In this document: piece by piece, positions 2,605 through 6,103 of the stretch | How the letters are laid out: every line of letters starts with the position of its first letter | Position numbering within the stretch: the stretch's first letter is position 1 | Source of the DNA: Octopus sinensis | Lineage: Eukaryota | Assembly: GCF_006345805.1 (NCBI RefSeq) | Contig: NW_021829580.1 | Location: 1-6,103 of the forward strand | Direction of reading: 5' to 3' | Length of the DNA stretch: 6,103 nt | The notes under the pieces: generated by a model | Seen by the model: the letters and a program-made list of their open reading frames with translations, nothing else | What the model was told of the DNA's origin: nothing | Database searches by the model: none | Made by a program: the position numbers and the translations under genes

Positions 2605-2646
2605 TATATATATATATTTGGAAGCCTCTTATTGTATATATATATA

Positions 2647-2990
2647 TTTTGAGCTGACGAAAGAAATGTCGAATTGTATTTGGCTGATCTAGAAACGTAC
2701 GTTCTCAAATAATCTTTGCACTTGTGATTTTTTAATGTTTTTACCCCCATACCTTCGTGGGTTTTTTTTGAGTAAAACTATCTGAGAGAAATTTTCTTAA
2801 GTATTAGAAATGGTTAAAAAAAATTTTTTTGGCTGCTATTTCTAATGAGTTCAGTATGTGGCAAGTAATTTATTTTACTAACCCTTTATAAAATGTAATA
2901 TTTTGAATTCGCCTTAAATTGTCCCTTTACATACTGAATACTTGGTGAATTGATTAATAATTAATTAATTTTACCCTCAATTGTTGAAAT
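2647..2990 (+). mobile_element. Non-coding hammerhead-bearing repeat, likely a Penelope-like element terminal repeat or non-autonomous derivative
   Basis: About 345 bp of AT-rich, non-microsatellite sequence bounded on both sides by (TA)n and beginning with the hammerhead. Minimal hammerheads with palindromic helix III are an established feature of Penelope-like element pseudo-LTRs. Confidence 0.55.
2648..2709 (+). ncRNA. Type I hammerhead ribozyme (minimal helix III, Penelope/retrozyme-like)
   Basis: Helix I TTTGAG (2648-2653)/CTCAAA (2704-2709). Core CTGACGA (2654-2660). Imperfect helix II 2661-2691 (AGA/TCT and GTCGAAT/ATTTGGC around loop TGT). GAAA (2692-2695). Helix III AC-GTAC-GT is palindromic. 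Cleavage triplet GUU, predicted cut 3' of 2703. Confidence 0.8.
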
Positions 2991-3053
2991 TATATATATA
3001 TATATATATATATAATAGACAAATCCATACATATATATATATATATATATAGT

Positions 3054-3086
<33 letters not shown>

Positions 3087-3105
3087 TATATATACAAATC
3101 CATAC

Positions 3106-3186
<81 letters not shown>

Positions 3187-3711: not shown

Positions 3712-3845
3712 TCTTTTCTACTCTAAGCACAAGGCCCGACATTTTGAGGCGGGGGATGGGGAGTCGATTAGCTCGATCCCAGTACGCAACTGGTACTTAA
3801 TTTATCGATCCCCGAAAGGATGGAAGATAAAGTCGGCCTCAATTT
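3712..3845 (-). mobile_element. Headless SINE body (family B variant)
   Basis: AGTCGATTAGCTCGATCCCAGTACGCAACTGGTACTTAATTTATCGATCCCCGAAAGGATGGAAGATAAAGTCGGCCTC closely matches the units at 5547-6090, but the distal (3') segment differs. Confidence 0.85.
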
Positions 3846-3854
3846 AGAATGACG

Positions 3855-3927
3855 TGCCTCAGGTGAGGATCGAACTGACGACCTTCAGATTATGAGATTG
3901 ACGCGCTGCCTACTGCGCTGGGCGGAC
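3855..3927 (-). pseudogene. tRNA-Met (elongator, anticodon CAT) pseudogene
   Basis: Minus strand GTCCGCCC-AGCGCAGTAGGCAGCGCGTCAATCTCATAATCTGAAGGTCGTCAGTTCGATCCTCACCTGAGGCA. Positions 9-73 are nearly identical to eukaryotic elongator tRNA-Met (D stem GCGC/GCGC, anticodon loop CTCATAA, TTCGA T-loop). However, 4 of 7 acceptor pairs are broken, U8 is C, and there are A30:C40 and C51:C63 mismatches. Confidence 0.85.
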
Positions 3928-4589: not shown

Positions 4590-5083
4590 CATCATCATCA
4601 TTGTTCGACCGTGGTCGAGACAATGGAATTTACTATGCTACGCCAGACTTCACGGGCCATCATGGCATTACGGAGGTCCTGTTGCTGGATGCCTGTATCC
4701 CTGGAGATTACATCGGGGTAGGAGAGTGTGCGCCCTCTGGTATCGCGAGTAGATGGCTTCCAGAGGAGATGAGTAGAAATTGCCTCGTTTTCAGCTCTAC
4801 AACAATGTCCAGCAAACTGGACTCTCCAACCTTTCACAAGAGATGACACAGGTGGTAGTTTCTCATATATTTGCATTTTGGTTGGATGGCGCTTCCACGA
4901 GAGATTTTGAGCTCTCATAAGGAGGCGAGTGTAGGTTCCATCCAACCGCCTCTCAAGCTTCTTTGATAACGTCCAGGTTTCTGAGCCATATAGTAGAATT
5001 GGTTCGACTGTGACTTTGAATATTTCAAGTTTGAAGTCTCTACTTAGATTTGATGACCAGATCTTATGCATGTCATTACAGGG
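4590..5083 (-). mobile_element. 5'-truncated RTE-clade LINE
   Basis: (TGA)4 tail at 4589-4600. TSD ACAAT-TTGGGGCAAT (4575-4589) vs ACAATATTGGGGCAAT (5084-5099), with exact 10-bp core TTGGGGCAAT. Encodes an RTE C-terminal region. Confidence 0.92.
4598..5080 (-). pseudogene. C-terminal ~160 aa of an RTE-clade LINE endonuclease/reverse transcriptase ORF (post-RT region)
   Basis: Motifs KIW...KLEIF...V.PILLYGSETWTL, RLL.....SW, FAGH..R, LLWKP...RGR and REVWR are typical of RTE ORF C-termini. The frame is uninterrupted, but the first ~17 aa of the 4598..5131 ORF come from flanking DNA. Confidence 0.92.
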
Positions 5084-5090
5084 ACAATAT

Positions 5091-5261
5091 TGGGGCAATA
5101 AACCTCTTACCAATATTTCTTTGGGACTCAAGGTCCTTACAATGAGGCACTAAGCCTCTTACCTCAAATGACAACATGTCCTTGAAATGAGGAACTTGGC
5201 CTCTTACAATTTTTTCTCATGAGCTATATGTCCTTTCAATATGTGGCACTCATCCTCTTAC
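5091..5261. repeat. Degenerate tandem array, 4 units of 45-54 bp
   Basis: CCTCTTAC at 5103, 5155, 5200 and 5254; GTCCTT at 5133, 5178 and 5230. Unit core GTCCTT-N4-6-TG(A/T)GG(C/A)ACT-NNN-CCTCTTAC. Confidence 0.85.
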
Positions 5262-5537: not shown

Positions 5538-6103
5538 TTCTATTCTTATTTCTTTACTACCCGCAAAGTGCTACACACAGAGGGGACAAACAAGGACAAA
5601 GGGATTAAGTCGATTATATCGACCTCAGTGCGTAACTGGTACTTCATTTATCGACCCCGAAAGGATGAAAGGCAAAGTCGACCTCGGCGGAATTTGAACT
5701 TAGAACGTAGCGGCAAACGAAATACCTATTTCTTTACTACCCACAAGGGGCTAAACACAGAGGGGACAAACAAGGACAGACAAACGGATTAAGTCGATTA
5801 CGTTGACCCCAGTACATAACTGGTACTTAATTTATCGACCCCGAAAGGATGAAAGGTAAAGCCGACCTCGGCGGAATTGAATTCAGAACGTAGCGGCAAA
5901 CGAAGTACCTATTTCTTTACTACCCACAAGGGGCTAAACACAGAGGAGACCAACAAGGACAGACAAACGGATTAAGTCGATTATATCGACCCCAGTGCTA
6001 AAACAGGTACTTAATTTGTCTACTCCTAAAGGATGAAAGGCAAAGTCGACCTCGGCGGAATTTGAACACAGAACTAACGGCAGACGAAATCCGCTAAGCA
6101 TTT
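5538..6103 (-). mobile_element. tRNA-derived SINE (family B) with tandemly triplicated body; head runs off the right edge
   Basis: Units 5547-5726 (180 bp), 5727-5909 (183 bp) and 5910-~6091. Each has a B-box-like GTTCAAATTCC and the core GCCTTTCATCCTTT-GGGGTCGATAAATTAAGTACCAG on the minus strand. Only the last unit continues into different sequence (CGCTAAGCATTT). Short A-rich tail GAAATAAGAATAGAA at the left end. Confidence 0.9.

Follow-up and report, generated by a model that had tools for sequence, protein, structure and literature searches.

A dispersed hammerhead-ribozyme repeat in Octopus sinensis carries insertion marks that suggest mobilisation by Penelope-like elements

We analysed a 6,103-nucleotide stretch of Octopus sinensis DNA (contig NW_021829580.1; hereafter the window) and found that it contains one truncated copy of a multicopy, non-coding repeat with a hammerhead ribozyme motif in each unit. 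Insertions of this family end at two fixed 3' sites, which are paired in a strict manner between the arms of inverted insertions. On the basis of these observations, we propose, at a probability of roughly 0.6, that the 562-bp repeat is a retrozyme that relies on the enzymes of a Penelope-like element (PLE) supplied in trans and is probably copied from circular RNA.

Results

A 562-bp repeat inserted at (TA)n tracts

Searching the 2.7-Gb genome with the window copy returned 2,855 candidates, and the 40 of these that were scored yielded 41 near-full-length matches with 94-100% identity, the window's own included. Tandem copies have a period of 562 bp. The unit measures 555-562 bp (27 natural monomers span 535-568 bp), and subfamilies diverge down to ~78% identity. 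Copies are dispersed over many contigs and occur at (TA)n as single, tandem and inverted insertions, with arrays of 2 to 13 units in which consecutive units contain a complete hammerhead. The unit has no open reading frame (the longest stop-free frame is 52 codons), and a search for PLE protein matches inside it, including a divergent subfamily, found none.

A first-pass annotation of the window had described a ~345-bp unit headed by the ribozyme and flanked by TA tracts. The tracts are present on both sides (Table 1). We rejected the 345-bp unit, given the 562-bp period and the position of the ribozyme inside every tandem unit: the left edge of the window copy is a 5' truncation point, and its right edge is one of two fixed 3' ends, site L. 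Since 96 other 5' starts are scattered over unit positions 19-486, the start of this copy at helix I looks incidental. The broader proposal of a multicopy, non-coding hammerhead element of the retrozyme or Penelope kind, inserted into (TA)n, held up well: the core pattern has 2,966 matches genome-wide compared with 1 for the reversed control, so the sequence is far from single-copy, and its fixed ends run into (TA)n.

Literature searches listed no account of this family, although repeat libraries or supplements may already contain a consensus. The main text of an octopus repeat annotation (PMC13282606) makes no mention of ribozymes.

Table 1. Features of the repeat copy and its flanks, in window coordinates.
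Feature	Position	Strand	Basis
562-bp hammerhead repeat, copy truncated at its 5' end (unit nt 1 to ~350)	2646..2992	+	genome matches; tandem period; alignment to natural unit
Left (TA)n tract	2635..2647		sequence
Right (TA)n tract (target)	2991..3169		sequence
Helix I, 5' strand UUUGAG	2648..2653	+	sequence; pair counts
Core CUGACGA (C3-A9)	2654..2660	+	sequence
Helix II, 31-nt arm	2661..2691	+	fold; family base states
GAAA core	2692..2695	+	sequence
Palindromic helix III ACGUACGU	2695..2702	+	sequence; dimer versus monomer energies
GUU triplet; predicted cut after U2703	within 2692..2703	+	sequence; cut is a prediction
Helix I, 3' strand CUCAAA	2704..2709	+	sequence; pair counts
Predicted 11-bp stem (2849-2859 with 2929-2939) enclosing site S	2849..2939	+	consensus fold; U-A/C-G change, 7 versus 8 rows
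Site S, upstream fixed 3' end (unit ~250-266); inferred reverse transcriptase start, read through in window copy	2886..2901	+	38/100 3' ends; junction classes
~90-nt 'tail' between fixed ends S and L	2897..2992	+	tandem unit; 3'-end map
Site L, downstream fixed 3' end (unit ~343-353), in predicted hairpin loop; window copy ends here	2986..2992	+	49/100 3' ends

The window motif is a minimal type I hammerhead

Read from the sequence, positions 2648-2709 have the topology of a type I hammerhead, with the core parts in order at a three-helix junction. Helix II is composed of an A2661·A2691 mismatch at its base, a 3-bp stem (AGA/UCU), a 3x3 internal loop (AAU/UGA), a 7-bp outer stem and a UGU loop, and core position N7 is C, U or A among subfamilies. 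The bare core pattern also matches 50 of 200 shuffles and is alone not beyond chance. The full descriptor matches 1 of 3,000 shuffled windows, and 0 of 3,000 once the palindromic helix III is included. The order of parts that had been read by eye (6-bp helix I, CUGACGA, helix II, GAAA, palindrome and GUU) is confirmed from the sequence. A comparison with Rfam retrieved no hammerhead family from the window at E<=1, and the folding energy of the 62-mer is ordinary (z -0.33). At the level of sequence, the core, helix I and palindromic helix III identify a genuine hammerhead motif.

Computation gives the active monomer fold a probability of 7e-5, while two copies folded as a double hammerhead reach -26.2 kcal/mol versus -11.6 kcal/mol for two monomers; these are computed energies and not activity. 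An unstable helix III had been anticipated, and the energies agree with the dimer model put forward in PMC4209133.

The base of helix II is unpaired in most of the family

The A·A at 2661/2691 and the GUU triplet had raised the suspicion that this copy may be impaired. Among the 2,966 core matches, the helix II base is A·A in 833, U-A in 51 and A-U in 16; the other ~2,066 have mostly U·U (76 among the first 100 matches listed, counted by hand), and only 67 of all matches have a Watson-Crick pair. GUU is the triplet of the whole family, and over its first ~110 nt the window copy shows no difference from units of a tandem array at another place in the genome. We therefore rejected a copy-specific lesion; an unpaired base, A·A or U·U, is the family state and the window copy is typical of it. 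As A-U is the rarest natural state, the A2691U change once suggested as a 'repair' is better regarded as a test variant. The U-A variant forms a small dispersed subfamily, which indicates that a paired base is compatible with spreading, though it is not the family norm. The G10.1-C11.1 pair, typical of PLE hammerheads (PMC4209133), is absent from this family. In axolotl, HHR_Amex2 has U·U at the helix II base and cleaves nonetheless (PMC7229834). As Rfam misses the window motif, the family-wide unpaired base may extend current hammerhead descriptors.

Across 19 aligned variants, 89.5% of helix cells are paired, compared with 29-46% when slid, and the changes consist of G-U changes and one C-G/U-A swap in outer helix II. 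The helices are kept among these paralogues, and their covariation score did not exceed shuffles (83/500). The core and palindrome persist across subfamilies that are ~78% identical, evidence that is partly circular because most rows were found by the core pattern.

Insertions end at two paired sites

We mapped 100 3' ends from 55 insertions and found that 87 fall at two sites, 38 at S and 49 at L; 84 of these 87 run directly into (TA)n. The remaining 13 include a few pieces that a locus edge had cut and that entered the count repeatedly. Of 39 inverted insertions, 29 combine L with S, 2 combine L with L, none combines S with S and 8 have one end unclassified, giving L+S pairing in 29 of 31 classifiable cases (p 5e-7). 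The first 30 loci were picked by matching through L, which disfavours S+S among them. Loci picked by the core pattern alone gave 13 of 15 L+S (hand tally; p 0.007), and among further multi-copy inverted insertions six were all L+S and a seventh was not classable. Of the four TATA/ATAT words that the unit contains, three coincide with S or L, suggesting that primer microhomology could partly set the ends, although not their pairing.

PLEs have been described as having a tail on one end together with inverted copies truncated at the 5' end (PMC8557442 and its preprint), and the octopus family displays a tail together with tandem and inverted 5'-truncated copies. In the Anolis PLE Poseidon, the tail was mapped between two internal reverse transcriptase (RT) start sites and called unique to PLEs; AT-rich sites are cut on both strands and a dimeric protein is predicted (PMC11167929). 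The paired fixed ends in octopus read as this PLE 'tail' signature, and we consider mobilisation by a PLE very likely.

The unit is predicted to be highly structured

Folded as a circle, a natural monomer scored z -6.5 (40 shuffles). Five more monomers scored between -3.4 and -9.8 against dinucleotide shuffles and between -3.6 and -5.7 against tetranucleotide shuffles, with weaker values for their opposite strand (z -1.9 to -4.9; 20 shuffles each throughout). The computed folds are thus highly self-paired, as expected of a non-LTR retrozyme. In a consensus fold of 17 rows, 15 of 128 pairs have changes on both sides, a count reached in 1 of 500 shuffles; this is suggestive only, because the alignment that gave the structure also gave the changes, many of which are contributed by the two most divergent rows. 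Site S is predicted to lie in an unpaired AU-rich stretch within the 11-bp stem, and site L in a hairpin loop.

Units of one insertion share derived variants

Across 56 multi-piece insertions, 233 derived variants are common to all pieces (155 of them across both arms), 37 occur in only some pieces and 222 are singletons. One variant is confined to a single array, where all 4 units carry it; another is carried by 6 copies of one insertion and by 2 copies of a second, and the A-U helix II variant is present in all 3 copies of one insertion. Units diverge by 0.83% within the same arm and by 1.01% between opposite arms (26 insertions, p 0.054), with same-arm units slightly more alike in 16 insertions versus 9; this near-equality suggests that most tandem units date from insertion.

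Arms longer than one unit are common (62/107) and pass through the intact ribozyme cut site. Only 1 of 96 5' ends lies within 3 nt of the cleavage site; among TA-joined loci, ~3-6 of 34 have a 5' end there by our own reading. Given arms that cross the cut site and the lack of a pile-up of 5' ends at it, we consider linear cleaved monomers an unlikely main template. The derived variants shared across both arms, together with the strong folding of the monomer, instead favour repeated copying of one monomer, and on balance the template of the insertions was probably a circular RNA. Many insertion-wide variants are markers of sub-lineages, not of individual insertions, and the assembly may lack source arrays. 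Duplication at the DNA level also occurs: an inverted insertion of ~13 plus 3 units (L225; G000:C1:132517065-132526384) contains a 4-unit block repeated in its 13-unit arm. A nearest-neighbour comparison over 234 columns, a weak test, placed 47 of 90 cases in the same insertion and 23 in another, with 20 ties.

Candidate helper elements

The genome contains 5,029 GIY-YIG candidates, of which 150 were scored, giving at least 150 matches. Intact 781-aa frames with RT and GIY-YIG domains (RT score just below the Pfam cut-off) occur in near-identical copies with an upstream 479-aa frame. These PLEs carry the Cx4CxxC linker, a Neptune/Nematis motif that has been linked to microsatellite targeting (PMC8557442). 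Intact Neptune-type PLEs in this genome end in (TA)n, one of them with a ~40-nt tail. Hammerhead-less Naiads are further candidates for a helper. The pseudo-LTR hammerheads of the 781-aa group (L082:5662-5710; L068, L077 and L141) are a U3-A8 core variant with a palindromic helix III.

The linkage to Penelope RT/GIY-YIG frames foreseen in the first-pass annotation did not emerge at the DNA level: in the ~50 PLE loci that were examined, no DNA in common with the unit was found, and a partner search through GIY-YIG loci, the divergent subfamily and a second hammerhead family found no PLE that does. An apparent PLE chimaera at L009 and L192 was rejected, its spacer being a piece of a DNA-transposon inverted repeat. 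At L076, pieces of the unit lie beside a PLE with (TA)n between them.

The second hammerhead family (L084:640-1070; G000:C1:207473439-207473869) has 3,936 candidates at a spacing of ~477 bp and two 3' ends ~77 nt apart. In its helix II, a similar internal loop ends in UAA and the base is A-U; the DNA similarity of this family to the window unit is not beyond chance. In a single case (L191:3435-6255), an arm of this family is joined head-to-head, with no TA between, to the arm of a 5'-truncated Neptune-type PLE, and both arms end in (TA)n. This junction is a possible chimaeric insertion of two RNAs, which would name a helper for the second family.

Other repeats in the window

A separate repeat at 2110-2604 terminates on the right in a GC hairpin and CTAG, a presumably Helitron-like end that also occurs in L194, and lies between the two copies of a direct repeat (~2069-2093 and 2613-2637). 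A SINE-like repeat is present as three tandem copies of 184 bp at 5547-6090, with a related copy at 3762-3840. On the minus strand, 3855-3923 has a weak tRNA-like match below the Rfam cut-off, and 4598-5149 a 183-codon frame with no Pfam match, which we take to resemble the C-terminus of an RTE-type LINE protein.

Discussion

A proposed life cycle and its rivals

In the life cycle that we propose, a tandem copy would be transcribed, and two hammerheads, paired via their palindromic helix III, would release a monomer to be ligated into a circle where the lone ribozyme is predicted to be nearly inactive. A PLE protein, most likely of the Neptune type, would cut both strands of a (TA)n tract, and the freed 3' ends would prime cDNA inside the RNA at the AU-rich unpaired sites S and L, inverted insertions using one start site per strand. 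The RT could then pass the ribozyme and round the template, copying anything from part of a unit to several units, and a random stop would leave the variable 5' ends; the window copy would be one short product begun at L. A fuller version holds that the insertions record a Penelope enzyme copying circular RNA, with two RTs rolling from S and L round one circle, an RNA without DNA homology to its helper that is recognised by shape, and a helix II base that acts as a brake. We offer this joint reading tentatively and at less than even odds, including its suggestion that the unpaired base, kept as A·A or U·U, might be selected against self-cutting of the circle.

The strongest competitor keeps the PLE proteins and drops the circle. 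The repeat would be a non-autonomous deletion derivative of a PLE (pseudo-LTR plus tail), copied from uncut linear multimeric transcripts, with a hammerhead that is slow or protein-dependent and unneeded for insertion, and with arrays upheld by young homogeneous source arrays and DNA-level duplication. This would account for the end-pairing data equally well, and it fits the arms that cross an intact ribozyme site, the long arrays and the 4-unit duplication. Experience with Anolis Poseidon points the same way, as unprocessed RNA is its main substrate and ribozyme cleavage is unneeded for insertion in vitro (PMC11167929), which counts against a retrozyme circle; non-autonomous tandem PLE derivatives have also been described in Chlamydomonas (PMC8557442). 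However, aged arrays bear unit-specific mutations, yet daughter insertions are mostly uniform across units and arms, and some array-private variants have no visible source. Moreover, no parent PLE was found among the ~50 PLE loci examined, and the core and palindrome have been kept across the divergent subfamilies, with the circularity noted above. We judge this explanation rather unlikely.

Explanations that dispense with PLEs fare worse. An RT of the LINE type (RTE, CR1 or R4-like) with a preference for TA repeats, twin priming being the source of the inversions, would draw on the LINE fragments common in the window and nearby loci and on the coincidence of ends with TATA/ATAT words. Twin priming uses a second internal site that is variable, whereas here both inverted arms start at fixed sites and each may span several units, a pattern it does not predict; the repeat has no tail repeat of its own, and no 3' end in common with a LINE was seen. 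We consider a LINE origin very improbable. Least probable of all is that recombination between (TA)n tracts spread the repeat as a DNA satellite or minisatellite in which the hammerhead is a vestige. Such an origin would suit the higher-order duplication and neighbour-shared variants of some arrays, as well as the non-significant hammerhead covariation, but it is at odds with dispersal on many contigs, fixed 3' ends, random 5' ends and head-to-head arms, and with a sense strand that is more structured than the antisense and has paired changes across the unit.

Comparison with known systems

Overall, the family appears to resemble animal non-LTR retrozymes while bearing PLE insertion marks, and it departs from known elements in size, helix II and its two-arm insertions. 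Like PLEs with pseudo-LTR minimal hammerheads (PMC4209133, PMC8557442, PMC11167929), it occurs as 5'-truncated copies in tandem and inverted order, has one tailed end, targets AT-rich or microsatellite DNA, and carries a palindromic helix III and a hammerhead upstream of the RT start sites. Unlike them, it has no open reading frame, no G10.1-C11.1 pair and no DNA similarity to the PLEs examined in the genome, and its tail is ~90 nt compared with 30-40 nt. Non-autonomous Chlamys elements such as MRC1 (PMC8557442) are likewise short, PLE-dependent and inserted as multicopy head-to-tail arrays; they share 3' sequence with autonomous partners, whereas no partner homology was found for the octopus repeat, and most Chlamys lack the hammerhead that it has.

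With animal non-LTR retrozymes (PMC7229834; 10.64898/2026.07.22.740005), the family shares a non-coding AT-rich tandem unit with one type I hammerhead, thousands of copies, a strongly self-paired predicted circle and co-resident PLEs. In axolotl, HHR_Amex1 has a similarly weak palindromic helix III and HHR_Amex2 a similarly unpaired helix II base (PMC7229834). The octopus unit is longer (555-562 bp versus 150-450 bp) and differs from those described in its long helix II with a 3x3 internal loop, its GUU triplet, its (TA)n targeting and its inverted two-arm insertions with fixed paired ends. The word 'inverted' is absent from the main text of PMC7229834, as is 'tail' from that of 10.64898/2026.07.22.740005.

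Mobilisation of animal retrozymes by PLEs, and circular templates, have been proposed from co-occurrence, shared ribozymes and phylogeny (PMC7229834; 10.64898/2026.07.22.740005). If the circle-copying reading is true, a single short RNA and an intact enzyme from the same genome would suffice to test this unproven life cycle directly. Young copies (insertions diverge internally by ~1%) occur alongside intact candidate enzymes in this genome, which suggests that reconstitution is feasible. To those earlier lines of argument the octopus family adds evidence at the level of insertions: a PLE tail signature on a non-coding hammerhead repeat, strict S/L pairing between arms and uniform units within insertions.
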